Under the pieces are notes generated by a model that was given only the letters and a program-made list of their open reading frames with translations, was not told the DNA's origin and searched no databases. From Candidatus Daviesbacteria bacterium (GTDB lineage: Bacteria > Patescibacteriota > Microgenomatia > Daviesbacterales > UBA10151), in the NCBI GenBank assembly GCA_028687915.1, contig JAQTZF010000001.1:216229-280228 (forward strand): 64,000 nt of DNA, in the 5' to 3' direction. The translations under genes and the position numbers were made by a program. Of the stretch, positions 3,905-38,167 are shown in pieces. Numbering within the stretch: position 1 is the stretch's first letter; every line of letters starts with the position of its first letter.

Positions 3905-4987
3905 ATGAAATACGATACTCAAGTTTCCCAAATCCAACCGGCTATAACTGGAGCACAAAACATTTTAATTGCTATTCCTACTGAAGTTACAATTGACCGT
4001 TTAGCTTCTGGGTTAGCTCTGTATTTATCTTTAAAAACTGCTGGGAAAAATGTATCAATTGTGACAGATGGAGTTTTAACAGTTGGGTTTACTCATCTTT
4101 TTGGAATAGGAAATGTTAAAAATACTTTGCCTCAAAACTCGAGTGGTGATTACACAATTACTTTAGGTAATGTTGTTGCCCCTGATGGGCATATTCCAGC
4201 TTTGCAAAACCTGGATTGGGCACCTGCAGGTAACACTAAATCAGATTTAAAGCTAACCTTTCATGTTAATCCGGGACAAAAATTTGAACCCACTTTTGTA
4301 ACACCTGCACATGAAGGTGGAAACTTTGACCTAATTATTACAATCGGTGCAAATACCTGGTTATCACTTGGCTCTATTTATGCCAACAGTTCCCAAATGT
4401 TTACTAATACTACAATTTTAAATATTGATAACCAGTCAGAAAATACAAATTATGGACAAATAAATTTGGTTGATGGAGAGGCTTCTTTATCTGAGATCAT
4501 TGGTTTATTATTACCAGCCTTAAATTTACCATATGAGGCAGATACTGCCAGTAATATAATTGCAGGGCTTTATGATAAAACTCAAGGTTTGCAAACAGCA
4601 GGAGCTGATACTTATGAGGTTATGGCTCAAGCTTTAAGAGTTGGTGGACAAAAGCCATCCAATAGTTCAAATACTGCTCCAATGTCTGAGCCAGCTGCTC
4701 AGGCAGCTTCTACTACTGGTATGCCTGCATGGGTAGATGCTCCAGCACCGATTCAATCAGAGACATCTACTATCTCAAGTTCATCACAAGGTTTAAATAT
4801 TAGTCCTTTTCTAAATCCACAGAACTTTTCTGTTGATACTACTGCTGCTTCTACACCTCAACCAGAAATACAGCCTCAACCACAACAATCTGCAGAAGAA
4901 GTACCAATGGGTGAGCAAGCACAAACAACTAGTCCGGAAGCTGATTGGCTAACACCAAAGATTTTCAAAAGCAGCAAAATCGGTTAA
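3905..4987 (+). CDS. DHH-family (NrnA/RecJ-like) phosphoesterase-fold protein with substituted catalytic residues, plus an S/T/P/Q-rich low-complexity C-terminal tail
   Basis: Collinear with NrnA: ILIAIPTEVTIDRLASGLALYLSL compares with IILHRHVRPDPDAYGS…. The DHH motif is replaced by NIDNQSE (compare KIDHHPNED), so motifs I-III lack their Asp/His residues. No DHHA1/GGGH domain. Last ~120 aa are low complexity. Confidence 0.6.
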   Translation: MKYDTQVSQIQPAITGAQNILIAIPTEVTIDRLASGLALYLSLKTAGKNVSIVTDGVLTVGFTHLFGIGNVKNTLPQNSSGDYTITLGNVVAPDGHIPALQNLDWAPAGNTKSDLKLTFHVNPGQKFEPTFVTPAHEGGNFDLIITIGANTWLSLGSIYANSSQMFTNTTILNIDNQSENTNYGQINLVDGEASLSEIIGLLLPALNLPYEADTASNIIAGLYDKTQGLQTAGADTYEVMAQALRVGGQKPSNSSNTAPMSEPAAQAASTTGMPAWVDAPAPIQSETSTISSSSQGLNISPFLNPQNFSVDTTAASTPQPEIQPQPQQSAEEVPMGEQAQTTSPEADWLTPKIFKSSKIG

Positions 4988-6084: not shown

Positions 6085-8280
6085 ATGAAACAACAAAAGA
6101 CTATAACCAGGGAACTGGATTTAAATGGCCGTAAACTCACTTTAGAGACTGGCTACCTAGCTCAAGCTGCAGATGCTGCAGTGCTTGCAACATGGGGAGA
6201 AACAGTAATACTCGCTACAGTAGCTGCTAAACCTCTTGCTTCTGATCCTGGATATTTCCCTTTATCAGTTGAATATGTTGAAAAATATTATGCAGGAGGC
6301 AGAATTACCGCTCAAAAGTTTATAAAGCGAGAAACCAGACCACCAGAAGACGCTATCCTTGCAGGTCGTGCAATTGATCGGGCTATTCGTCCTTTATTCC
6401 CACATGATTTTCCTTATGAAGTACAACTTATTGTAAATGTCTTATCCTTTGATGGAGAAAATGATCCTGTTACTTTAGGTTTTATAGCAGCAGCAGCAGC
6501 AGTTTCTTTATCTTCAGTACCTTTTGCAGGACCAATGGGAACTGTTAGAGTAGGGTTAAAAGATGGGGAATTTGTAGTAAACCCAACTTTATCTGAATAT
6601 GATTCTCTTGATTTAAATCTATTAGTAGCAGCCACTAAAGAAAAAGTTGCCATGATTGAAACAGTGGCAGATGAAGTAGAGGATGAATTGGTATTTGATG
6701 GTATTAAAAAAGCTCACACTGAGGCACAAAAAATTGTTAATTTAATTGAAGATTTTGCTAAAGAAGCTGGTAAGACAAAAGTTGTATTTTCCTCTTTAAA
6801 TGAATCTGTAGAAGAAGCAGTAATGAAAGAGGTTAAAACTGAAGTTAAGGCCAAGATTCAGGCTGCCTTATCTGATCCAATAAACCCATGGCATGAGGCT
6901 ACAGGCGATATTATTAAACAAGAATTAGCACTTAAATATGCTGATACATTATCTTCAACTATTTTGCGGGGTATTTTTGATAAAGTTGCTAAGGAATTGA
7001 TGAATGATTTGATCTTAAATCAAGGTAAAAGAGTTGATGGCAGAGCTATGACTGATATTCGTCCAATTGATATTAAAGTTGGACTACTTCCAAGAGCACA
7101 CGGTTCAGCAGTTTTCCAACGTGGTTCTACTCAAGTTTTATCAATTGCAACTGTAGGACCACTTTCTTTATCTCAAACCCTAGAAGGTATGATGGGAGAA
7201 TCAACCAAGAAATTTATGCATCATTACAATATGGGAATTAATCCTTTCTCAGTGGGAGATGTTAAAAGAATTGGTGCTCCAAACAGAAGAGATATTGGTC
7301 ATGGAGCTTTAGTTGAAAAATCATTAGTTAATGTTATTCCTTCTAATGAAGATTTCCCTTATGCAGTCAGAGTAGTATCAGAAGTTTTAGCAGCTAATGC
7401 TTCTACTTCCCAAGCAGCTCTTTGTGCTTCCACTTTGGCTCTTATGAATGCTGGTGTTAAGATTAAAAATCCTGTGGCTGGTATTGCCTTAGGTTTATTA
7501 TCCAATGAAGAAAAATTCCAGGTAATTACTGATATGCAGGCTGTAGAAGACTTTTATGGTCAGATGGATTTTAAAGTTGCCGGAACTGTTAAGGGTGTAA
7601 CAGCAATCCAAATGGATACTAAACTACATGGTTTATCTTTTGAAATTATTGAAGAAGCTTTGAAGCAAGGTAAAGCTGCCAGACTCGTTATCATAGAAGA
7701 AATTAATAAAGCTATTCCAGAGGTTGGACCAATGTCCAAATATGCACCAAAGATTGAGATTACTCACATTAAACCAGAAAGTATTGGAGCTTTAATTGGA
7801 CCAGGTGGTAAAAATATTAATGCTATTATTGCCAGAACTGGTGCTCAAATTGATATTGAAGATGATGGAATGGTGATGGTTTCTTCAACAGATGATGAAG
7901 CAATTAGAAAAGCAATTTCTGAAATTGATGGAATGTTTAAAGAAGTTGCTGTTGGTGAAGTTTATGAAGGTAAAGTAGTAAAACTAGCTACTTTTGGAGC
8001 ATTTGTTGAAATCTTACCTGGTCGCGACGGATTGGTTCATGTTTCTCAAATGGCACCAGAACGAGTGGAAAATCCAGCAGATATTGTTTCTGAAGGTCAA
8101 ACAGTTAAGGTCAGAGTAACTGATGTTGATCCATCTGGTAAAATTGGTTTATCAATGTTATTCGGAGAACAAATAAAGCCAGATAGTGAACGAAGACCAA
8201 GTGGCGGTGGAAATAGACGTGATTTTGGTGGTCAGAGACGTGAGTTTGGTAATAATTCTTCTGATAGACGTCGAAGATAA
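6085..8280 (+). CDS. pnp: Polynucleotide phosphorylase (PNPase) with a C-terminal RGG-rich tail
   Basis: Two RNase PH-like domains, KH (IGALIGPGGKNINAI) and S1 (GEVYEGKVVKLATFGAFVEI) domains. rpsO-pnp synteny. Confidence 0.95.
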   Translation: MKQQKTITRELDLNGRKLTLETGYLAQAADAAVLATWGETVILATVAAKPLASDPGYFPLSVEYVEKYYAGGRITAQKFIKRETRPPEDAILAGRAIDRAIRPLFPHDFPYEVQLIVNVLSFDGENDPVTLGFIAAAAAVSLSSVPFAGPMGTVRVGLKDGEFVVNPTLSEYDSLDLNLLVAATKEKVAMIETVADEVEDELVFDGIKKAHTEAQKIVNLIEDFAKEAGKTKVVFSSLNESVEEAVMKEVKTEVKAKIQAALSDPINPWHEATGDIIKQELALKYADTLSSTILRGIFDKVAKELMNDLILNQGKRVDGRAMTDIRPIDIKVGLLPRAHGSAVFQRGSTQVLSIATVGPLSLSQTLEGMMGESTKKFMHHYNMGINPFSVGDVKRIGAPNRRDIGHGALVEKSLVNVIPSNEDFPYAVRVVSEVLAANASTSQAALCASTLALMNAGVKIKNPVAGIALGLLSNEEKFQVITDMQAVEDFYGQMDFKVAGTVKGVTAIQMDTKLHGLSFEIIEEALKQGKAARLVIIEEINKAIPEVGPMSKYAPKIEITHIKPESIGALIGPGGKNINAIIARTGAQIDIEDDGMVMVSSTDDEAIRKAISEIDGMFKEVAVGEVYEGKVVKLATFGAFVEILPGRDGLVHVSQMAPERVENPADIVSEGQTVKVRVTDVDPSGKIGLSMLFGEQIKPDSERRPSGGGNRRDFGGQRREFGNNSSDRRRR

Positions 8281-8989: not shown

Positions 8990-10033
8990 ATGGATCAAAC
9001 TGCCCAACCAAACGATAATTTCTCCAAACTAAGACAGAAAATTAAAGACAATAATTTACCAGCAAATTTAGTTGAAAAACTAAATGATGAGCTGGACCGT
9101 CTGCAAAAAATGGTAGCAGCAACAGGTTATAAGTTTGAGTTTGATAAAGTGTTTGAGTATATAAATTTTGTGGCCTCATTACCTTTTAATAATTCCAGCC
9201 AGGATATTTTGGATTTAAAACGAACAGAAGCAATGTTAAATGAAAATCATTATGGCTTGAATATAGTCAAAGAAAGAATTTTAGAATATATGTCAATTTT
9301 AATATTAAATGCCAATAAAGGAGAAAAACTTCGTTCTCCTATATTATCTTTTGTAGGGTTAGTTGGATCAGGTAAAACATCAATTGCTTATTCTATAGCA
9401 GAAAGCATGGGACGAAAAATTATCAGAATTCCTTTTGGAGGACTAAGTTCTGTGACAGATTTAAGAGGTCAATCAAGAGTTAACGCGGATGCGGAACCAG
9501 GGTTATTAATGAAATCAATTATGAGAGAAGGTGTAAATAATCCTGTAATATTATTGGATGAAATAGACCGAGTAGCCACAGAATCACGAGCAGATTTAAT
9601 GGGGGTTTTGGTGGAGCTTTTGGATCCTAATCAAAACTTTGCCTTTATTGATAAATATGTGGATTTTCCATTTGATTTATCAAAAGCTTTATTTATAGCC
9701 ACAGCCAATAATACAGGTAATATTGCTACAGCAGTACTTGACAGAATGGAAATGATTGAGATGCCAGGCTATTCTGACGAAGAAAAAATTGTTATTGCTA
9801 AGAAATACTTAATGCCAAAGATTATAAAATCAGCAGGATTACCAGACAATACAATAATAATTGATGAAGCGTTATGGCCCCAGATTGTTAGGCCTTTAGG
9901 GTTTGACGCCGGAATCAGGTCATTGCAACGTAATATCGAGACTATTGTTCGTAAAGTTGCTAAACAAGTAGTAGAGGGTAATGCGGGCCCCTATAGCTTA
10001 ACAGCGGAAAATGTAGGAAAATATATAGGTTAA
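8990..10033 (+). CDS. Lon-like AAA+ ATPase module (helical linker plus AAA+ domain) with no LON N-terminal domain and no S16 peptidase domain
   Basis: Collinear with E. coli Lon residues ~250-585: HYGL..VKERILEY, Walker A GLVGSGKTS (Lon GPPGVGKTS), Walker B VILLDEIDRV, sensor-1 ATANN, and …GIRSLQRNIETIVRKVAKQ compares with AGVRGLEREISKLCRKAVKQ. ORF ends at the point where the Lon protease domain would begin. The stop overlaps the rnj start. Confidence 0.7.
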   Translation: MDQTAQPNDNFSKLRQKIKDNNLPANLVEKLNDELDRLQKMVAATGYKFEFDKVFEYINFVASLPFNNSSQDILDLKRTEAMLNENHYGLNIVKERILEYMSILILNANKGEKLRSPILSFVGLVGSGKTSIAYSIAESMGRKIIRIPFGGLSSVTDLRGQSRVNADAEPGLLMKSIMREGVNNPVILLDEIDRVATESRADLMGVLVELLDPNQNFAFIDKYVDFPFDLSKALFIATANNTGNIATAVLDRMEMIEMPGYSDEEKIVIAKKYLMPKIIKSAGLPDNTIIIDEALWPQIVRPLGFDAGIRSLQRNIETIVRKVAKQVVEGNAGPYSLTAENVGKYIG

Positions 10034-11736
10034 TGAAATCATTTTTACCAAATTTTAAATCTAATCAAGGACAAGTAATCCAACATCAGGGACTTAGAAT
10101 CATCCCCTTAGGTGGGGTTGGTGACGTGACCAAAAATATGTATATCTATGAGTATGGCCGTGACATTATCATCATTGATTGTGGTGTTGGTTTTCCGGAC
10201 GAAGCTATGTTGGGAGTAGATTTGGTTATTCCGGATATTTCCTATTTAAAGGATAAAGTTGACCGAATTAAGGCAATTATTATTACTCATCCACATGATG
10301 ACCATATTGGAGGATTAGTATATATCTGGCCAGAACTAAAGTGTCCAATTTATGCGACCAAGTTAGCAGTTGGTTTTATTAAAAATAAATTTAATGAAGC
10401 TAAATTACCAAAAGATCCAATTCATATAATTGATCCGGAAAACAAATTAAACTTGGGAGCTTTTGGAATATCATTTTATCGGGTCTCACATTCTGTGCCA
10501 GATTCAGTGGGAATTGTCATTGATACTCCTGGTTCAAGAGTCATTCACCAATCAGATTTTAAATTAGACTGGACTCCAATTATTGGTAAACCAACGGAAA
10601 TTGCAAAAATTGCCAGGTTTAGTGAAGATGGCATTGATTTATTGCTTATTGATGCATTGGGATCAGAAAAGAAAGGCTACAATGAGCCAGAGATAAATAT
10701 TTTACCAACATTCAAAAAGATTGAAGAGGAAACTGAGGGGAAAATATTATTAACCACAGCAAGTTCCAATATCAGTCGTATTCAGATGGCAATTAATGTA
10801 GCAAGTGATGCAGGACGAAAAGTAGCTTTGGTGGGTCGTTCTATGGAAAGTAATTTTCAAGTTGCCAGAGACCTTGGTTATTTACATATTCCACCAGGCA
10901 TAATTATTGCTCAGGAAGAGGTTAAAAGGTTTCCTGATAATAAATTATTATTAATCATTGCAGGTTCTCAGGGTCAACCAGGTTCAGCTTTGTCCAGGGT
11001 TGCTAATAATGATCATAAACATGTATTTCTTAAAAAAGATGATACAGTTATCTTTTCTGCCGATCCAATTCCCTCAACAGAAACTGCTCAACATGCCTTG
11101 ATTGATAAATTAGCCAAAATGGGAGTAGATGTCAGGTATAAAGAAATGGAAGATGCTTTGCATGTTTCTGGACATGAAACAGCAGAAGAAATTAAGATGA
11201 TGATCAATATAATCAGGCCAAAAGCTTTGGTTCCAATTGGGGCAACTTATCGGGGAATGATAGCTTTTTCTAAATTGGCAAAAGATTTGGGCTATACTGA
11301 AAAACAAATTCTTTTAGCTGAGGATGGGCAAATTATTAACCTTGTTTCAGGTGTCTCTCGTCTTGAGGGTAGAATTGATGTTCGAAATATTTATGTTGAT
11401 GGATTAGGGATAGGAGATGTGGGAAATGTTATATTAAGGGACAGAAAAGTGATGTCTGAGGAGGGAATAGTATTGGTAATTGTTCCTGTGGATAGTCATA
11501 CTAGCCAATTAGTAGGAGAGCCTGATATAGTAACTCGTGGGTTTGTTTTTGAAAGAGAAGCAGAAGAAATGCTGTCAAAAGCACGAAGTGTAGTCAGATC
11601 ATGTTTGGCAGATCATCCTAATGCTATTTTAGATTGGAGATTTACCAGAAGCCATATTGAAGAAAATTTGGATAAATTCTTCTTTGAGGAGTTGCATCGC
11701 AGACCCATGATTCTACCATTAATTGTAGAAGTCTAA
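10033..11736 (+). CDS. rnj: Ribonuclease J (beta-CASP metallo-beta-lactamase RNase)
   Basis: HPHDDHIGG (HxHxDH) motif, beta-CASP architecture, 567 aa. Confidence 0.85.
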   Translation: MKSFLPNFKSNQGQVIQHQGLRIIPLGGVGDVTKNMYIYEYGRDIIIIDCGVGFPDEAMLGVDLVIPDISYLKDKVDRIKAIIITHPHDDHIGGLVYIWPELKCPIYATKLAVGFIKNKFNEAKLPKDPIHIIDPENKLNLGAFGISFYRVSHSVPDSVGIVIDTPGSRVIHQSDFKLDWTPIIGKPTEIAKIARFSEDGIDLLLIDALGSEKKGYNEPEINILPTFKKIEEETEGKILLTTASSNISRIQMAINVASDAGRKVALVGRSMESNFQVARDLGYLHIPPGIIIAQEEVKRFPDNKLLLIIAGSQGQPGSALSRVANNDHKHVFLKKDDTVIFSADPIPSTETAQHALIDKLAKMGVDVRYKEMEDALHVSGHETAEEIKMMINIIRPKALVPIGATYRGMIAFSKLAKDLGYTEKQILLAEDGQIINLVSGVSRLEGRIDVRNIYVDGLGIGDVGNVILRDRKVMSEEGIVLVIVPVDSHTSQLVGEPDIVTRGFVFEREAEEMLSKARSVVRSCLADHPNAILDWRFTRSHIEENLDKFFFEELHRRPMILPLIVEV

Positions 11737-11779: not shown

Positions 11780-13900
11780 ATGTCTAGACGTCGTTCAATG
11801 TATTCTTTGCCAAAACTAAAACTAAAACCAAAAACGATTATTACTATTGGAACAGTTATTGCATTCATTTTTGCAATTATTTCCGGAGTGTCTTTATTTA
11901 CTGAAACTGCAAAACTATTATTTTGGAGAGAGTTTTTATACGGAAACTTAGGTTGGACATCTTATTTTTCACCATTTATCTTTTTAATTTCTGGATTGGT
12001 TCTACAACGATTTAAGTGGCAATATGCCCAGCCAAATGTCTTGTTAGGCCTTATTACAATTATTATTTCACTATCTGCTTTAACTGCTTCTTTTTTCTCT
12101 GATGGTGCAGGTGATTTGGGTAATTTAATTTGGAATGAGTTGGCTGGAATATTAACAGGGTTTGGTGCAGCAGGAGTATTACTTGGAATTTTAATAGTGG
12201 GATTAATAGTATTTTTTAATACTTCTGCTTCTCAGGTTTTAGAAATAGTGACTGCAATTTATAAGTTTATTCAGGGAAATATTTTTAGTCCCATATTTGG
12301 CAGATTTTTTGGACCAAGTTTAGCTGAGCCAAGGAAAATATCAATTAAAGTATCTGGTATGCAAGAGACACCAAAAGTTGCTGTTGCGCCACAAAAAGAA
12401 ACAGCTATTATGGCAGATGAACTTGTTCAGAACGTGGCTGGTCAAACTAAAATCTGGAAATATCCACCAATTAGTTTACTCTCTGATAAAGTGGGAGCGC
12501 CAGCAGACCGGGGCGATGTAAAGAAAAATGCTTCAACAATTGAAAAAACTTTGGATGCTTTTGGGGTATTGGCTGAGGTAGCAGAAGTTAATGGTGGCCC
12601 ATCAGTTACTCAGTATGCTTTAAAAATATCTTCGGGCACAAAAATTGCCAAGATTACCAACTTACAACATGATTTGGCCATGGCTTTGGCAGCCAGAACC
12701 GGAACTGTCCGGGTTGAAGCTCCAATTCCAGGAAAATCATTGGTGGGAATTGAAGTACCAAATAAAACATTAGAAGTTGTAGGTTTAAAAACTATTTTAG
12801 CCTCAGATGATATGCAAAAACAAAAAAGCAAATTGGCAATAGCTTTGGGAAGAGATACCTCTTCTAAAGAAATAATTGTTGATTTAGCTAAAATGCCTCA
12901 CTGTCTAGTTGCTGGTACTACTGGTTCTGGAAAATCCATCATGTTAAATGCACTTATTGCGTCCTTGCTTTATCGAAACTCTCCGGAGGAATTAAAACTT
13001 ATTTTAGTTGATCCAAAAAGGGTAGAGATGTCTAACTACAATGGCATTCCTCATTTATTAACTCCGGTTATCAATGAACCAGAAAAGATTTTATCGGCTT
13101 TAAAATGGACTATGGCAGAGATGGATAGACGTTATAAAACATTTCAAGCAGTGGGAGTTAGAAATATACAAGGCTACAATGAGATGTCAGGTTTTCAGGC
13201 ACTTCCATATATTGTAGTGGTAATTGATGAGTTGGCAGACTTAATGCTTTTTGCTCCGGTTGAGGTGGAAGATGCTATTACCCGTTTAGCACAATTATCC
13301 CGAGCCACAGGTATTCATTTAGTAATTGCCACACAGCGTCCATCTGTTGATGTTATAACTGGTTTAATTAAAGCTAATATTCCTTGTCGGGTTGCTTTTA
13401 CAGTTTCCTCCATGGTTGATTCACGGGTTATTCTTGATTCTCCAGGAGCAGAAAAATTACTGGGGCGTGGAGACATGTTGTTTTTACCGCCTGATGCTTC
13501 CAAGCCAATGCGTATTCAGGGAGTTTTTGTGTCTGATGCTGAACTAAACAGTTTAATTGACTTTTTGAAATCCACTGGTGTGGCTCCACAATATACTACT
13601 GAAATTACAGAAATGCCTATTGGTAGGGTTGGTGGTAAATCAGGAGGTAGTTCAGGTGGTGCTGATGATCGGGACGAGCTCTTTGATGAAGCTATTAAAA
13701 CAGTTTGCCAATATGACCGGGCTTCAGCATCGTTATTACAGCGAAGGCTTAGAGTAGGCTATGCCAGAGCTGCCAGAATGATTGATGAGCTGGAAGCAGC
13801 AGGAATTGTAGGGGCTGGAGAAGGTTCAAAACCTCGAGACGTGTTAGTCAGAAATGCAGATGAATACTTTGCTCAAAAGAATAACCCTACTGAAAGTTAA
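11780..13900 (+). CDS. ftsK: DNA translocase FtsK/SpoIIIE
   Basis: N-terminal transmembrane helices, GTTGSGKS Walker A, VVIDELADLM Walker B, C-terminal winged-helix gamma domain (…LLQRRLRVGYARAARMIDELE…). Strong Shine-Dalgarno AAGGAGG at 11768-11774. Confidence 0.9.
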   Translation: MSRRRSMYSLPKLKLKPKTIITIGTVIAFIFAIISGVSLFTETAKLLFWREFLYGNLGWTSYFSPFIFLISGLVLQRFKWQYAQPNVLLGLITIIISLSALTASFFSDGAGDLGNLIWNELAGILTGFGAAGVLLGILIVGLIVFFNTSASQVLEIVTAIYKFIQGNIFSPIFGRFFGPSLAEPRKISIKVSGMQETPKVAVAPQKETAIMADELVQNVAGQTKIWKYPPISLLSDKVGAPADRGDVKKNASTIEKTLDAFGVLAEVAEVNGGPSVTQYALKISSGTKIAKITNLQHDLAMALAARTGTVRVEAPIPGKSLVGIEVPNKTLEVVGLKTILASDDMQKQKSKLAIALGRDTSSKEIIVDLAKMPHCLVAGTTGSGKSIMLNALIASLLYRNSPEELKLILVDPKRVEMSNYNGIPHLLTPVINEPEKILSALKWTMAEMDRRYKTFQAVGVRNIQGYNEMSGFQALPYIVVVIDELADLMLFAPVEVEDAITRLAQLSRATGIHLVIATQRPSVDVITGLIKANIPCRVAFTVSSMVDSRVILDSPGAEKLLGRGDMLFLPPDASKPMRIQGVFVSDAELNSLIDFLKSTGVAPQYTTEITEMPIGRVGGKSGGSSGGADDRDELFDEAIKTVCQYDRASASLLQRRLRVGYARAARMIDELEAAGIVGAGEGSKPRDVLVRNADEYFAQKNNPTES

Positions 13901-17886: not shown

Positions 17887-18624
17887 TTATGAAACCATTT
17901 TAGAAAGAAGAAGCAGATTTTGCCAAACTTCCGAAATCTTTTCTTGAGATATGGTAGGTGGGAGATTAACTTTGATTATTGATTGGCCATTACATTCGGA
18001 AAATGGAGCGTTCCAACAGGAGTAAATTAGATTAAGCAATCTTTGGGTATGATTAGAGATGGACGGAGTAATCTTTTTCATCTCCTGAAATATAATTTGT
18101 CTTGCGTTGGAAGGGAGTAAAACAACTACTGCTATGGCAAGAGGTAAACTGTCACGATTAAAGTTGTTTAGATCTTCGCCTGTTACAAAATCTCTGGCAA
18201 TATCAGGGTCAGCAGCAGAATTAATTATTTTGGCAGCTGTGGTAGGGGGAATAATTTCTAAAAAATCTGTCATACACCGTTCAGCGGAAAATTTATAGGG
18301 ATATAATCTCTGCCCAGAACTTTCTTCAATTTGTTCTCCGAGTATTGAGGTAGCAACTAAAATGCCGGTTAGCCCATGCTGCTCTTTTGAGTTTTTTCCT
18401 TTAGGGAGCTGTAAAACTTCATCTTCCCAGACTCTTTGTTTGTGAAGAATGCTATTAGCCCAAGCGATTGGATAAAATGGTTCTAATGGTTTTTTAAAGT
18501 ATCTGCCTAGCATTTTTGAAAGAAGGGCATTTTTGCATTCTTGAGATGGGATTTGTTTAACAAGGGAAACTTCTCCATAACTGCCTTCTTTTATTACTTC
18601 ATAACTATTGTGTGCATTTTCCAT
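17887..18624 (-). CDS. Hypothetical protein (245 aa)
   Basis: Intact ORF. No motif recognised. Confidence 0.45.
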   Translation of the reverse strand: MENAHNSYEVIKEGSYGEVSLVKQIPSQECKNALLSKMLGRYFKKPLEPFYPIAWANSILHKQRVWEDEVLQLPKGKNSKEQHGLTGILVATSILGEQIEESSGQRLYPYKFSAERCMTDFLEIIPPTTAAKIINSAADPDIARDFVTGEDLNNFNRDSLPLAIAVVVLLPSNARQIIFQEMKKITPSISNHTQRLLNLIYSCWNAPFSECNGQSIIKVNLPPTISQEKISEVWQNLLLLSKMVS

Positions 18625-19034: not shown

Positions 19035-21311
19035 ATGAGTTTTTTAGATAAATTAACTGCCAAACTTCCATTTAATAAACCATCCGAACAAACAGAGTAT
19101 TTCTTTGCTGTAAGTATTGGTTCCTCTGAAGTTACTTCAACAGTCTGGGGTTTATATGGTAAACAAATTGATATCTTAGGTCAAAAAACCCTGAGCTATT
19201 CTGGTACAGAAGATTTAATTGAAAAAACTCATCAAGCCTTAGATGATTCTTTAGGTGCTCTTGATTTAGAACCTGAAAAAGTTCTTTTTGGCGTGCCAGA
19301 ATCATGGAGTATGGATGATAATTTAAAAGAACCCTACCTAAAACTTTTAAGTAAGATGCTTAAAGAATATGATCTTTCCCCAATGGCTTATGTAACTACT
19401 ACCAACTCTTTATCCTTTTTACTACAAAAACAAGAAGGAGCTCCTCCTACTGCAATCCTACTAGGTTTAGGTGAGTTTGTGGAAATAACTTTGGTAAAAG
19501 GTGGAAAAATTTTGGGTACTAAATCTAGTAAACGAACAGATATTTTATTTGAAGATATTGAAAGGGTATTACAACAATTTACAGAGGTGGAGGTTTTACC
19601 TTCCAAGATATTACTTTACTCCACTAAGGCAGGACAAAATCTATCCCGATTACACGGTGACTTAATGTCTTTTCCGTGGATGGCCAAGTTATCTTTTCTT
19701 CATTTTCCTAAAATTGAAATATTGGCAGATGATATTTTATATCAGTCAGTTATTTTTGCAGGAGCATCTGAACTTTATCCTGAAATAGATTTAAAACATA
19801 ATTTCTCTCTTTATCAGCCAGTTACACCTTCTTTTGAAGAAAGATCATCTCATGTGAGAGGATTTCATGCCATGAATCAGGAAGTTGATAAAGTAGAAGA
19901 TTTAGGATTTGTTAAGGGTGATATTAGACAAAAACTAGAAGAGCAAGAGGATATAATTAGTGCTACACCACGAAAATTAAAAAAATTCCTATCTAGAGAA
20001 ATTGATAATTTGGAGGATAATTTAGGAACTGATAATTTAATTTTTCCTAATGAAGTTTCAAGGGTTAATAAATCTGTAACAGGTATATTTAATCCTATTA
20101 CAGCTAAATTATCGTCATTATTTACAAAAATGAATATTCCTAAAAACTTATCATTTAAAAATTCGATATTTGGAAAATTATTAATTGCAGCTATTATTAT
20201 TGGAGTTATTGTAGGTTTATATGTTTTTCTTTCTAAAGCTACTGTTAATATTTTGGTTGAACCAAAGCTTCTAACTAAAGAAACTCAGGTAGTTGCAGAT
20301 CCAAAAGTAAAACAGATTGATGAGGCAAATAAAATTATTCCTGGAACAATTGTAGAAACTTCCCAAACTGGCACAGACAAAGGAGTAGCTACTGGTTCAA
20401 AACAAATTGGTGATCCTGCCAAAGGAAAAGTAGTAATCCGTAATAAAACTGATGCTGCAATTAATGTGGCCAAGGGCACAACTTTAACTTCTGGCTCAGG
20501 TTTAAAATTTACTTTGGATCAAAGTGTGTCTATTGCATCTCAATCTTCTACTTTAACTCCTGATGGTCAAACCACTACCTGGGGGAAATCAGAACCTGTA
20601 GGGGTAACAGCTGTAGCTATTGGTCCAGAAAGTAACTTAACAGGAGGAACAGAGATGAATGTGGGAAATTATTCTAAAGATCAATTAATTTCCAGTGTTG
20701 ATTCAGCTTTATCTGGTGGTACATCTAAAACAGTTACTGTGGTAACTGCTGATGATCAAAAAACTTTACAGGCCAGGTTAACAGATACCTTACGCCAAAA
20801 GGCTGTTGCTGATTTACAGTCCCAATCTAAAAATGGACAAAAAGTAATCACTGATGCTTTAGCAGTAGTTGATGGAAAATATAGTTTTAGTAAACAAGCC
20901 AATGATGCTGCATCAGACTTTACCTTAAATGCTACCATTCGTTTCCGTGGTACTTCTTATCTTGATGCAGATTTACGTACAATTGTCTCAAAACTAGTGG
21001 TAACTGATATTCCATCAAATTATCAGATGAGTTTACAGGATGCTCAAACTCAGGCAGAAGTAGCAAAAATAGAAAAAGATGGAAGGTTAGTTTTTAATGC
21101 TAAATTTATTGCTAAATTATTGCCAAACTTAAGTTTGGATGAAATAAGAAATCAAATTAAAGGAAAAAGTACGGGAGACGCTGAGAATAAATTAAAAGGA
21201 ATGGAAAATGTAATAGGCTCAGAAATTATATTATCACCTGCTTTGCCTGGACCTTTAGGCAGATTACCACTCTTAGATAAAAATATTACTATCACTATTT
21301 CTCCTAAATGA
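19035..21311 (+). CDS. Actin-fold (ASKHA; PilM/FtsA-like) ATPase domain fused to a single transmembrane helix and a large Ser/Thr/Gly-rich extracytoplasmic domain (758 aa)
   Basis: N-terminal YFFAVSIGSSEVTSTVWGL (phosphate-1-like) and later AILLGLGEFVEITLVKGGKIL (DIGGGTT-like), typical of FtsA/PilM. Transmembrane segment LLIAAIIIGVIVGLYVFL near residue 385. Downstream domain is rich in T/S/G/V. Confidence 0.5.
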   Translation: MSFLDKLTAKLPFNKPSEQTEYFFAVSIGSSEVTSTVWGLYGKQIDILGQKTLSYSGTEDLIEKTHQALDDSLGALDLEPEKVLFGVPESWSMDDNLKEPYLKLLSKMLKEYDLSPMAYVTTTNSLSFLLQKQEGAPPTAILLGLGEFVEITLVKGGKILGTKSSKRTDILFEDIERVLQQFTEVEVLPSKILLYSTKAGQNLSRLHGDLMSFPWMAKLSFLHFPKIEILADDILYQSVIFAGASELYPEIDLKHNFSLYQPVTPSFEERSSHVRGFHAMNQEVDKVEDLGFVKGDIRQKLEEQEDIISATPRKLKKFLSREIDNLEDNLGTDNLIFPNEVSRVNKSVTGIFNPITAKLSSLFTKMNIPKNLSFKNSIFGKLLIAAIIIGVIVGLYVFLSKATVNILVEPKLLTKETQVVADPKVKQIDEANKIIPGTIVETSQTGTDKGVATGSKQIGDPAKGKVVIRNKTDAAINVAKGTTLTSGSGLKFTLDQSVSIASQSSTLTPDGQTTTWGKSEPVGVTAVAIGPESNLTGGTEMNVGNYSKDQLISSVDSALSGGTSKTVTVVTADDQKTLQARLTDTLRQKAVADLQSQSKNGQKVITDALAVVDGKYSFSKQANDAASDFTLNATIRFRGTSYLDADLRTIVSKLVVTDIPSNYQMSLQDAQTQAEVAKIEKDGRLVFNAKFIAKLLPNLSLDEIRNQIKGKSTGDAENKLKGMENVIGSEIILSPALPGPLGRLPLLDKNITITISPK

Positions 21312-31490: not shown

Positions 31491-31721
31491 GTGAAAAAAA
31501 CTTCTGCCGGATTTGCTCCTATTTATTTAATAATTATCCTTTTTATTCTTGGGGTAATGGGTGGAGCTTATTATTATGGTAAATCATCTGTTTCTAAAAC
31601 TTCAGTTATTGATTTTAATTCTTGTAAGAAAGCGGGTTATCCAATCCGTTTACTAAATTGTCAAGGATGCCCAAAATATTGTGATACACCATGGGGAGCT
31701 AGTTATTCTGAAAAACAATAA
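31491..31721 (+). CDS. Small (76 aa) protein: pilin-like hydrophobic leader plus a four-Cys mini-domain (C-x12-C-x2-C-x3-C). Proposed GTG start.
   Basis: VKKTSAGFAPIYLIIILFILGVMGGAYYYG leader matches the family leader. GTG at 31491 is the first start in frame after the stop of the upstream gene. The ORF-track start (31380) would overlap that gene by 95 nt. Confidence 0.4.
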   Translation: MKKTSAGFAPIYLIIILFILGVMGGAYYYGKSSVSKTSVIDFNSCKKAGYPIRLLNCQGCPKYCDTPWGASYSEKQ

Positions 31722-31722
31722 A

Positions 31723-32769
31723 ATGAATCAAAAAGGCTTTACAGCCCAAATTATTTTAATAATTGTAGGAATAATAATTTTATTAGTTCTAGGTTATACT
31801 TTTTTAGCAAAACCTTATAAAGTTTATGGTGAAAATATAGCCTTTCCTCCTTATAAAATAGGGCAGCTATCTTTTTCTGAAAAAGTAACATATCTGTTTA
31901 GAAAACCGGCAGTTGGGGATAGAGTTATTTTTTCTCCTTTAGGACAATACTCGAGTTATATTGGAATTATTACCAAAGAAGAAAACCAAAATGGAGTAAT
32001 TATTTATACTATCTGTTCCACAGGGAAAGGGTTTCCCTGGACAGTTTCAATAGAAAAAATTTCCGGGAAAATATATTATCCCGTTTTAGATCAAGATGAT
32101 GCTAAAAGAATTGCAGAATCATTCAATTCTTCTCCTACCACTCCTACTCCAACTCCAATAGAAATGCCAATAAGTTTTGAGGAGACAAAAAAGTGGCCAA
32201 CTTATACTAATACAAAATATGGTTTTTCTATTAAATATCCGGAAAATATGCAATTTAAAGATATTACAGAAGAACCTACTATTAGCGGAATGGATTATAA
32301 AACTGGTGAAAATTCATATGTCCCTTTAAAGGAATACTTTAAATATGCTAAACGCGAATTAATAGTTACTTTTGCAGAACAAAGTAAACTTGATGATAAA
32401 ATGACCCCGATTGTACCCAAAAAGATTACAGATTTTTGGATTTCAGGAATTTCATTGCATGTTCAAAAAGGAGATCAGCAAATAATAGAAGAATATAAAG
32501 ATAAAAAATTAGCTGAAAAGGCAGGGGAGCAACCGCCTTCTCCAGGCCGTAAGCTAGAAATTACAAATATAATAATTAATGGTATTAGTGTGACTAAATT
32601 TTCGGAGATTAAGCATTTTTACACTGACGATTTAGTTGGAGCTTCTGAAGCAATTTGGCAAAAAGACGGATTCGTATATTTATTATCTAATGATTACGAT
32701 ATGGGTTACGGAAATAAATATTTTGATGCAATGCTTTCTACTTTTAAATTTAATGAAAGAACTCCTTGA
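31723..32769 (+). CDS. Secreted/anchored paralog-family protein (348 aa)
   Basis: ATG at 31723 gives MNQKGFTAQIILIIVG…. Core …KKWPTYTNTKYGFSIKYPENMQ…, C-terminus …AMLSTFKFNERTP. TPTPTP linker. Confidence 0.6.
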   Translation: MNQKGFTAQIILIIVGIIILLVLGYTFLAKPYKVYGENIAFPPYKIGQLSFSEKVTYLFRKPAVGDRVIFSPLGQYSSYIGIITKEENQNGVIIYTICSTGKGFPWTVSIEKISGKIYYPVLDQDDAKRIAESFNSSPTTPTPTPIEMPISFEETKKWPTYTNTKYGFSIKYPENMQFKDITEEPTISGMDYKTGENSYVPLKEYFKYAKRELIVTFAEQSKLDDKMTPIVPKKITDFWISGISLHVQKGDQQIIEEYKDKKLAEKAGEQPPSPGRKLEITNIIINGISVTKFSEIKHFYTDDLVGASEAIWQKDGFVYLLSNDYDMGYGNKYFDAMLSTFKFNERTP

Positions 32770-36629: not shown

Positions 36630-37241
36630 ATGCTAAAGGAAAAAGGCTTTGCACCAATAATTATAATTTTAGGAATTGTTTTATTTTTAGGTATAGTTGG
36701 TGGAGTGTATTATTTTAGTAAAAATTCAAGTAGTGCTATAAAAAATAATCCTGTAAATACCCCAACCCCAACTGCAACTCTAAAGGTAGATGAAACAACT
36801 AATTGGAAAACTTATACAAATACGGAATATGGATATTCAATAAAATATCCAGAAAATATTTCCTTAGAAGAAATGGGTGTGGATGTAAAAGGTAAACTAG
36901 TTAAATGGATTTGGATTGATAAACAAATCCAAATTTCTGTTACTAAAGCGAATTCTTCAGAATGCAAAGTAGATTGTCCGATTATTTCAAAGATAGAATC
37001 TGTTAAAATCGATAACACAGAGGGGAAAAAGCAGAGTGGTTATATTAGTCAAATAGGAGGGCGTATACCTCAGTCTTTCCAACAGGTTATTATCCCACAC
37101 AATGGTAGCTATTTTAATATTTCCCTCTATGAATTAAAAAATGATAGTATAAAGAGCTCTGAAAGAAAGGCGGGTACAATCACAGAAGCGGAAATTAAGC
37201 TTTTTAATCAAATTCTTTCTACCTTTGAATTTACTAAATGA
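36630..37241 (+). CDS. Secreted/anchored paralog-family protein (203 aa)
   Basis: MLKEKGFAPIIIILGIVLFLGIVGGVYYF leader, TPTPT linker, …TTNWKTYTNTEYGYSIKYPENIS…, …FNQILSTFEFTK C-terminus. Confidence 0.6.
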   Translation: MLKEKGFAPIIIILGIVLFLGIVGGVYYFSKNSSSAIKNNPVNTPTPTATLKVDETTNWKTYTNTEYGYSIKYPENISLEEMGVDVKGKLVKWIWIDKQIQISVTKANSSECKVDCPIISKIESVKIDNTEGKKQSGYISQIGGRIPQSFQQVIIPHNGSYFNISLYELKNDSIKSSERKAGTITEAEIKLFNQILSTFEFTK

Positions 37242-38167
37242 ATCAAAAGGGTTTTGTTCCAATAATTATAATTCTAGGAATTGTTTTATTTTTAACGATT
37301 GTTGGTGGTGCTTATTATTTTGGAAGAATGACTATAAAAGGTAAAATCTTAGACTATAACTCGATGCCTTTTGATAATCCTAATTTAGAAATTAAAGGAA
37401 TTAATGGCTCTTTTGGTAAATGTGAAGTTAAAAAGACAGGGAATTTTATTTGTAAAGCCCTATTATTGCCAAATCAAACTTATGGTATTTATTTAAATGA
37501 TGACAAAACTAATGCTTTTGTTCTTCAACATTTTACTGCTGAATTTGCAAAAATAGTTGATATAGGAGAGAGACAAGTACCAAGGACTAGTGAACCACAA
37601 GCCACTAGTATAGATGAAACTGCTGATTGGAAAACTTATACCAATACTAAATATGGTTATTTAATTAAATATCCCGAAAAATTGAAGATAAGAGAAAGAG
37701 GGAGTTTGAGTCCGTCATTGATTGATAGTTTAGATATATGTTTGAAGGAAAGTTGTGGTGACCCAGATATTATATCTGTTAACGTTATAACCAAAGAATT
37801 TGCATTAGGATCACTTAATAATCCTTCGATTAGCAAAGAAGAAATTACCATTAGCAATATTAAAGGTATAAAGAAGGTAGGTGAATATCATTACGGAAAA
37901 GAAATTATTGTTTATTTCCCTGCGCCTAATGGAGCTAGTTATGTAAATATTGGTACGAATAGTCAAAATGCACAAATTTTTGATACTATTCTTTCTACTT
38001 TTAAATTTACAGACACAAATTCAGGAAGTGGGAAATATACTTGTCCAGAAAATGGATATCAAAATTGTATGCCAATTTTAGATGCGGAAGGACAAAAACA
38101 ATGTAGCAAAGAAGCATTAGATTGGAAGCAAACTAATTGTCCCAATTTTTCAGGTGCGGCATATTAA
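37238..38167 (+). CDS. Secreted/anchored paralog-family protein (309 aa, the family domain preceded by a small N-proximal domain)
   Basis: MNQKGFVPIIIILGIVLFLTIVGGAYYFG leader, …TADWKTYTNTKYGYLIKYPEKLK…, …FDTILSTFKFTDTN… motifs. Start overlaps the previous gene by 4 nt. Confidence 0.6.
   Translation: MNQKGFVPIIIILGIVLFLTIVGGAYYFGRMTIKGKILDYNSMPFDNPNLEIKGINGSFGKCEVKKTGNFICKALLLPNQTYGIYLNDDKTNAFVLQHFTAEFAKIVDIGERQVPRTSEPQATSIDETADWKTYTNTKYGYLIKYPEKLKIRERGSLSPSLIDSLDICLKESCGDPDIISVNVITKEFALGSLNNPSISKEEITISNIKGIKKVGEYHYGKEIIVYFPAPNGASYVNIGTNSQNAQIFDTILSTFKFTDTNSGSGKYTCPENGYQNCMPILDAEGQKQCSKEALDWKQTNCPNFSGAAY

Follow-up and report, generated by a model that had tools for sequence, protein, structure and literature searches.

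What does the ATPase of Lon do when it stands alone? The question is raised by a gene, here called lonAAA, in a stretch of 64,000 nucleotides (the window; positions 216,229 to 280,228 of the forward strand of contig JAQTZF010000001.1, assembly GCA_028687915.1) from a Candidatus Daviesbacteria bacterium, i.e. from a lineage of the Microgenomates group within the Patescibacteria group. Lon is the textbook fusion of ATPase and peptidase in one chain, and a protease-independent, chaperone-like function of its ATPase has long been debated. The original prediction, made from the letters of the sequence, described the gene as a lon reduced to its AAA+ module, with intact Walker A, Walker B and sensor-1 motifs, stopping where the S16 peptidase domain should start and immediately followed by rnj; it offered two readings, neofunctionalisation (towards an unfoldase or a chaperone) or a Lon split across loci. 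Our analysis leads to the conclusion that lonAAA is a repurposed motor, not a broken gene, and that it belongs to a family of stand-alone Lon ATPases which is real, conserved and apparently undescribed.

The descent of lonAAA from the AAA+ module of LonA is clear. Against the NCBIfam family TIGR00763 ('lon') the protein scores 332.9 bits (E=4.8e-99) over model positions 251-568 of 795, which is below the curated equivalog cutoff of 608 bits because only the middle third of the model is matched. The best NCBIfam family outside Lon is RFC, with an E-value of 2.8e-06 only, ClpA being at 7.6e-06; a closer homology to a non-Lon AAA+ family, which the original prediction had considered, was thus not found. 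Pfam recognises an AAA domain (1.3e-14) and Lon_lid (1.3e-09, residues 280-331) and nothing else of note, and a phmmer search of the PDB aligned residues 11-347 collinearly with Lon residues 246-579 of 793 (E~1e-71), the Lon matches being 7fd4, 4ypl, 3m6a and LONP1, with 35-42% identity to LonA; the E. coli Lon fragment 6n2i was matched as well, and its extent is that of the query. The AlphaFold2 (AF2) monomer (predicted local distance difference test, pLDDT, 89.2; predicted template-modelling score, pTM, 0.83) consists of a three-helix bundle, an α/β domain and a lid, and the top Foldseek matches of this model are all Lon proteins (LONP1, MtaLon, 6n2i), with query template-modelling scores (TMq) of 0.82-0.90. 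Sequence and predicted fold thus both bear out the reduction of Lon to its AAA+ module. Neither NCBIfam nor Pfam has a dedicated family for this stand-alone form.

The protein ends with the lid, at the boundary where the S16 domain was expected, and the last A of its TAA stop (10031-10033) is also the A of the rnj ATG. Since the RNase J encoded from there is full-length (NF047419 positions 3-548 of 549), this one-nucleotide overlap leaves no room for a peptidase domain. Traces of the missing domains were sought with hidden Markov models (HMMs) of Lon_C (the S16 peptidase) and LON-N, which were built from 60 canonical Lons and run on six-frame translations, and by tblastn, using three queries for Lon_C and one for LON-N. 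Both approaches came out negative for the six frames of the 64-kb window (best E>0.1 with the HMMs), and so did the HMMs for 590 kb flanking 43 orthologues of lonAAA. Among the loci obtained in the survey that yielded these orthologues, AAA together with Lon_C was detected in 42/42 of those from outside Patescibacteria, and LON-N was detectable in most of them. A frameshifted protease remnant within rnj or upstream, which the original prediction took as the possible sign of a sequencing error, is therefore ruled out in any frame of the window, as is any frameshifted or separate S16 or LON-N remnant at the 43 loci. We also rejected the idea that the 232-amino-acid open reading frame (ORF) located just upstream is a LON N domain split off from the gene: its N-terminus forms a transmembrane (TM) helix, it matches no known family, and most of the orthologous loci are without it.

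The short form is shared by the relatives. The 120 best database matches (protein clusters) are 311-359 amino acids long, mostly 338-359, the few of 311-335 looking partial, and are 60-88% identical to the query; they come mostly from Candidatus Daviesbacteria and Microgenomates and carry the name 'AAA family ATPase' or that of 'ATP-dependent Lon protease'. A survey of orthologues, with one genome per GTDB species, gave 43 Patescibacteria loci, plus one (L036) cut by a contig end; these loci (numbered with the prefix L) are labelled as Shapiro-, Ames-, Levy- or Roizmanbacteria, as 'Patescibacteria group' or, for two contigs, as Saccharibacteria. In all 43, the protein ends 0-20 residues beyond the end of the query. 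An exhaustive search among representatives brought further short members at 38-56% identity, including some from Dojkabacteria, and no Lon_C or LON-N was detected in these more distant members either. The N-terminal extensions of the longer members were considered as folded substrate-binding domains and discarded, for they are Q/P-rich, of low complexity and without Pfam match. At the other end, many members have a few residues of the AAA-to-protease linker and a conserved aromatic C-terminal tail (…LPxW/Y), which the Daviesbacteria proteins lack. In a neighbour-joining (NJ) tree of 223 Lon AAA+ modules, drawn without support values, the 65 stand-alone sequences form a single clade. When compared with an 87%-identical orthologue, the ratio of non-synonymous to synonymous substitution rates (dN/dS) is 0.04 for lonAAA, 0.085 for pnp and 0.049 for rnj, figures that are rough because dS is near saturation. 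It is the age and the monophyly of the family, together with purifying selection throughout Patescibacteria, that support neofunctionalisation, the former of the two readings of the original prediction.

Some records in the survey carry unexpected taxonomic titles. Several binchicken co-assembly records titled 'Gammaproteobacteria' have a gene order of the Patescibacteria type, and we take these titles as placeholders because the order is that of the Patescibacteria loci. Similarly, L028 (titled Candidatus Methanoperedens sp.) and many 'uncultured Gammaproteobacteria' loci display the order pnp-lonAAA-(UDG)-rnj-ftsK, where UDG stands for uracil-DNA glycosylase, with a lonAAA of 47-57% identity; given this order and this identity, the titles look like those of mis-binned or placeholder records.

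The ATP site is preserved in full. The three motifs named in the original prediction, GLVGSGKTS (residues 123-131), LLDEIDR (188-194) and ATANN (237-241), are intact, and the complete set, made of the Walker A Lys, the Walker B Asp-Glu, the sensor-1 Asn, the Arg finger and the sensor-2 Arg, is invariant in the 120 close sequences as well as in 65 diverse members of the family. The Walker A motif has nevertheless acquired a signature of its own, G-L-x-G-x-G-K-T against GPPGVGKT in canonical Lon: 57/65 family members have L at position 124, where P is found in 75/82 canonical Lons. Because the Arg finger acts in trans, its invariance implies an active site formed between subunits and hence, we infer, an oligomer.

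With these ATP 'fuel' sites untouched, it is the substrate-gripping channel that is redesigned, as judged from the sequence of its two loops. Pore-loop 1 of canonical Lon reads R-R-T-Y-[VI]-G-A-[ML]-P-G, the Tyr being present in 80/82 sequences and followed by V, I, L or M in 81/82, whereas the consensus of the 65 family members is S-[RK]-x-x-x-[DE]-A-E-P-G. The Lon Gly is replaced by D or E in 57/65 of them and the Lon Met/Leu by E in 58/65; the Tyr position is taken by F in 14/65 and by a non-aromatic residue (H, R, S, N, E, among others) in the remainder, and the next residue is P or A. The window protein has Asn165-Ala166 at the Tyr-Val/Ile site, then the acidic D-A-E-P-G; in its close relatives, the Tyr position is occupied by K, N or R. 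The residues that follow the tip (A168, E169, P170, G171) are nearly invariant. In pore-loop 2, the spacing from DEID to LDPxQN is 17 residues in both lonAAA and Lon, so that the alignment needs no gap, and family members have A, S, G or T at the position of the Lon aromatic residue, which is 199 in the window protein.

The explanation that we favour, and to which we would give about an even chance, is that lonAAA encodes a ring-forming, ATP-hydrolysing, non-proteolytic Lon motor, which remodels or holds selected clients via an acidic, aromatic-free channel. According to this scenario, a LonA ancestor would have lost, in ancient times, its N-terminal substrate-binding domain and its S16 peptidase, giving rise to an orthologous family that spans the Patescibacteria (Microgenomates lineages, Dojkabacteria and some Saccharibacteria-labelled contigs). 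The protein would assemble into Lon-like hexamers, and ATP hydrolysis would allow clients to be remodelled, held or released without degradation, in a chaperone-like manner; the acidic motif of pore-loop 1 could make the contact electrostatic and aimed at basic segments. This contact would probably be selective rather than generic threading, because the aromatic or hydrophobic grip is gone from both loops and an acidic D/E-A-E-P-G has been gained in the first. A generic unfoldase role is thus less likely. Of the two activities put forward in the original prediction, the chaperone-like one is still favoured and that of a canonical unfoldase is doubtful, since the Tyr-Val/Ile of pore-loop 1 and the aromatic residue of pore-loop 2 are gone and DAEPG has appeared.

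Several points weigh against this explanation. ATPase activity and ring formation are deduced from motifs, and that an AAA+ module forms a ring without its protease domain is a prediction. The acidic channel is likewise proposed from the position of a few residues in an alignment, and the Phe found at the pore-loop Tyr position in 14/65 members means that threading may persist in part of the family. The absence of an S16 ORF applies to the window and to ±8 kb around the 43 orthologues, the rest of the genome not having been searched. Finally, the synteny of most loci points more to genes of RNA turnover and cell division than to chaperones.

The local gene order is nusA-infB-NUDIX-…-rpsO-pnp-(232-aa TM ORF)-lonAAA-rnj-ftsK-…-RodZ-like HTH_25-…-alaS (coordinates of the central genes are given in the table). 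The genes are tightly packed, those from pnp to rnj abut or overlap, and no terminator-like site was found between pnp and ftsK, except for one weak hit inside lonAAA; lonAAA is therefore probably co-transcribed with pnp and rnj. Among the 43 loci, pnp lies directly 5′ of lonAAA, with at most one ORF in between, in about 28, and it is in the flanks of 3 more; rnj is downstream of lonAAA in about 27. The linkage holds even when the pnp and rnj products are only 36-47% identical, and the overlap of the lonAAA stop with the rnj start is found both in the window and in L087. However, this synteny is weak functional evidence because the order pnp…rnj…ftsK…rodZ is also that of Firmicutes and Actinobacteria, where we take it to be ancestral (rpsO-pnpA…rnjB-tepA-spoIIIE…ymfM in B. 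subtilis). To our knowledge, a stand-alone Lon AAA+ gene is missing from their version of it. Moreover, about 10 loci lack the pnp link and some also the rnj link, and yet the gene is kept (L019, L025, L030, L037, L039, L084). In three of these, which belong to a Roizmanbacteria-like lineage (L019:5733-7811, L025:5906-7903, L030:5866-7862), lonAAA is divergent from an adjoining groES-groEL pair, a modest hint of a role in proteostasis. The intergenic regions of the three loci have in common a TTGTCAAG motif near the lonAAA start, and in L019 and L025 lonAAA is followed by a convergent PF04308 RNaseH-like gene. A heat-shock operator common to lonAAA and groESL was also looked for in the three loci and rejected, there being no controlling inverted repeat of chaperone expression (CIRCE) within 4 mismatches.

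Other neighbours are less constant. The 232-aa ORF has no Pfam, NCBIfam or PADLOC match, is found only in the closest relatives (L087, partly L004) and has a dN/dS of about 0.22. In 16 Patescibacteria loci, an ORF of 190-227 amino acids (cluster c9; L008:9095-9664, L012:9082-9735, L014:9525-10142 and 13 further loci) is inserted between lonAAA and rnj; motifs identified by eye (GEAPG…HPAAALR) are those of a family-4 UDG. It is absent from the window; in L037, a locus without pnp and rnj, it still adjoins lonAAA. The C-terminus of PNPase, the polynucleotide phosphorylase encoded by pnp, is an Arg/Gly-rich tail resembling RGG repeats and probably disordered (window 8140-8280, ending in …SERRPSGGGNRRDFGGQRREFGNNSSDRRRR). 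For the window and 27 related loci, the final 45 residues carry a net charge of +3 to +12.

What else could lonAAA be? That it results from an assembly or sequencing error, or that it is a decaying pseudogene left by a recent deletion in lon, has nothing in its favour beyond the short length of the protein and can be regarded as refuted, with a probability close to nil: an identical protein was found in an independent Logan assembly, 120 clusters have the same length, the same end occurs at 43 loci from many studies, dN/dS is 0.04 and no remnant is left in any frame. Another possibility is a Lon in two pieces, in which the ATPase docks on an S16 or other self-compartmentalised peptidase encoded elsewhere, the pair being an ATP-dependent protease. 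The ATPase sites are intact, the …LPxW/Y tail of many members could serve for docking, and ClpX/ClpP and HslU/HslV demonstrate that separate genes for ATPase and peptidase are workable. However, neither the 64-kb window nor the ±8 kb around the 43 orthologues contains a Lon_C-like ORF, so that the split across loci suggested by the original prediction receives no support at this local scale. The sole recurrent extra neighbour, the c9 ORF (about 200 amino acids, 16 loci), was examined as a hidden peptidase partner and rejected, since its motifs are those of the glycosylase. Furthermore, the pore-loop aromatics required for processive translocation into a chamber are lost, and the Daviesbacteria proteins do not have the putative docking tail. 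We know of no two-piece Lon, and none was found in our literature searches; we consider this possibility quite improbable.

It may also be that the ATPase acts on or with PNPase and RNase J, e.g. in the assembly or remodelling of a minimal degradosome or on the Arg-rich tail of PNPase. This would explain the conserved place of lonAAA between pnp and rnj and the stop/start overlap with the latter, and the basic tails of PNPase would suit an acidic pore. But the gene order may be inherited without functional linkage, the loci where the link to pnp, or also to rnj, was lost have retained lonAAA, and Pfam detects no RNA-binding domain in the protein; on balance, we hold such a role to be unlikely. 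Still more doubtful is a specific version of it, in which basic, disordered stretches of polypeptide, the RGG-like tail of PNPase for instance, are bound in the acidic, aromatic-free channel of the Patescibacteria protein, and lonAAA uses ATP to assemble or remodel a minimal RNA-decay machine of PNPase and RNase J; if true, this role would be one not known for any Lon relative. Alternatively, the ATP cycle could control an interaction, as in an adaptor or an assembly factor, with the central pore unused. That the window protein, like most of the family, has lost both pore-loop aromatics would fit such a non-threading switch or regulator, as would the strong conservation of the lid and of the three-helix bundle. 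This also seems improbable to us, because an Arg finger that acts in trans and never varies speaks for an oligomeric ring and the near invariance of A168, E169, P170 and G171 indicates that the pore loop still has a job. A non-proteolytic, client-remodelling Lon motor remains the explanation that we prefer.

Table. Position of lonAAA, of its motifs and of the adjoining genes in the 64-kb window
Feature	Position	Strand	Basis and remarks
lonAAA, 347-aa stand-alone Lon-type AAA+ ATPase	8990..10033	+	ATG start; Pfam, NCBIfam, PDB phmmer, AF2, Foldseek
lonAAA domain make-up	8990..10033	+	Three-helix bundle, α/β domain and lid; without N domain and S16 peptidase
Three-helix bundle, residues 7-62, equivalent to the C-terminal part of the LonA HI(CC) domain (NTD-3H)	9008..9175	+	AF2 helices 7-20, 25-45, 49-62; aligned to Lon residues ~246-305
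Walker A GLVGSGKTS, residues 123-131	9356..9382	+	G123, G126, G128, K129, T130 invariant in 120/120 sequences
Pore-loop-1 region RGQSRVNADAEPG, residues 159-171	9464..9502	+	Pairwise alignments to 3m6a and 8k3y; column counts
Walker B LLDEID, residues 188-193	9551..9568	+	D190, E191 invariant in 120/120 and 65/65
Pore-loop-2 region ATESRADLMG, residues 196-205	9575..9604	+	Lon aromatic (D-[FMWY]-R-G-D-P) corresponds to Ser199 in ungapped alignment
Sensor-1 TANN, residues 238-241	9701..9712	+	N240 invariant
Arg finger R252, in VLDRME	9743..9745	+	Invariant in 120/120 and 65/65
Sensor-2 R310, in DAGIRSLQR, lid domain	9917..9919	+	Invariant
pnp (polynucleotide phosphorylase), upstream, same packed cluster	6085..8280	+	Pfam
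232-aa ORF, one N-terminal TM helix	8289..8987	+	Stop 2 nt before lonAAA ATG
rnj (RNase J)	10033..11736	+	Start overlaps lonAAA stop by 1 nt; Pfam, NCBIfam
ftsK, next in conserved cluster	11780..13900	+	Conserved-cluster neighbour

The window contains other ORFs that Pfam does not recognise. Between infB and rpsO, a spot usually occupied in other bacteria by rbfA and truB, lies an ORF (3905-4987, + strand) of a cluster, c6, which comprises proteins of about 280-450 amino acids from 24 loci, with a C-terminal half of low complexity and no Pfam match. An ORF of 758 amino acids (19035-21311, + strand) and further sizeable ones (17887-18624 on the - strand, 31681-32769 and 37238-38167) are also without Pfam match at E<=1e-5.

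The interest of lonAAA lies in the fact that a natural lineage dropped the peptidase and the N domain, rewired both pore loops and kept every residue of the ATP site, under selection as strong as that on housekeeping genes and throughout a large bacterial radiation, which makes it a ready-made system for finding out what the Lon motor does alone; it also bears on proteostasis in the ultra-small genomes of Patescibacteria. Our full-text literature searches brought no relevant description of a protease-less Lon, or of Lon in the candidate phyla radiation (CPR)/Patescibacteria. The label 'ATP-dependent Lon protease' given by the Joint Genome Institute (JGI) to several members is misleading, because these proteins cannot be proteases, and the NCBI label 'AAA family ATPase' masks their Lon origin.

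It remains to compare lonAAA with known systems. LonA (MEROPS S16; B. subtilis 3M6A, M. taiwanensis 4YPL/7FD4, human LONP1) has the same bundle, α/β domain and lid, and lonAAA shares with it the key residues of Walker A and B, of sensor-1, of the Arg finger and of sensor-2. Unlike LonA, lonAAA begins at about Lon residue 246, and thus has neither the LON N domain (PF02190) nor the long coiled-coil helix, and it lacks the Ser-Lys peptidase (Lon_C, PF05362); its two pore loops and its Walker A (GLxGxGKT) depart from those of LonA, and its score is below the TIGR00763 cutoff. The membrane-bound LonB of archaea differs by a TM insertion in the AAA+ module and by its S16 domain; lonAAA is without both, the AF2 secondary structure showing no insertion and no TM segment in its AAA+ domain.

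Another group is that of tandem-AAA+ Lons, which are the top scorers for the query (P0121-P0135, P0140 and others; L086:6001-8670). These proteins of 889-1379 amino acids comprise two or three Lon AAA+ modules, each with a Lon_lid, and one C-terminal Lon_C, without LON N; we know of no description of such multi-ring Lon proteases. In the NJ tree, the sister group nearest to the stand-alone family is formed by their modules, with 35-43% identity, but these proteins keep the S16 domain and, mostly, the Tyr, Trp or Phe of the pore loop. We considered them as a Rosetta-stone fusion and rejected the idea: the query is equally distant (35-43%) from all modules, no specific link between the first tandem module and the stand-alone family was found, and one of these proteins, P0130, sits among resolvase, transposase and ParA genes. 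The anti-phage Lon-like ATPases (BrxL and others) were set aside as well, since PADLOC gave no BrxL match and only a weak, partial match of generic AAA type (DolB, 1.2e-08); the context of lonAAA, a housekeeping cluster (nusA-infB-rpsO-pnp-rnj-ftsK), is unlike a defence island.

ClpX, HslU and ClpB/Hsp104 belong to the broad AAA+ group that includes Lon, and their motors stand alone. Being without fused peptidase, they may serve as functional models for remodelling or hand-off, but they keep aromatic pore loops, ClpX and HslU have defined peptidase-docking elements, and the sequence similarity of lonAAA to this group is negligible beside that to Lon. Within the Lon family, a single activity of the two is left also in partial Lons such as LonC of Meiothermus taiwanensis, where the S16 protease is retained beside an AAA-like module that is degenerate and inactive (PMC3391209); lonAAA is its mirror image, with the ATPase kept and the protease lost. 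A physical counterpart is a fragment of E. coli Lon, residues 235-584 (6N2I), a stable product of limited proteolysis whose crystal packing is that of an open helical hexamer (PMC6722904). It has the same start and almost the same extent as lonAAA, residues 7-347 of the latter superposing on chain residues 8-340 with a target template-modelling score (TMt) of 0.89, and its stability and helical packing show that such a module is able to persist and to self-associate when the other domains are missing. The difference is that the fragment was obtained in the laboratory from a protease with canonical pore loops, whereas lonAAA encodes a naturally occurring protein under selection, in which these loops are altered.

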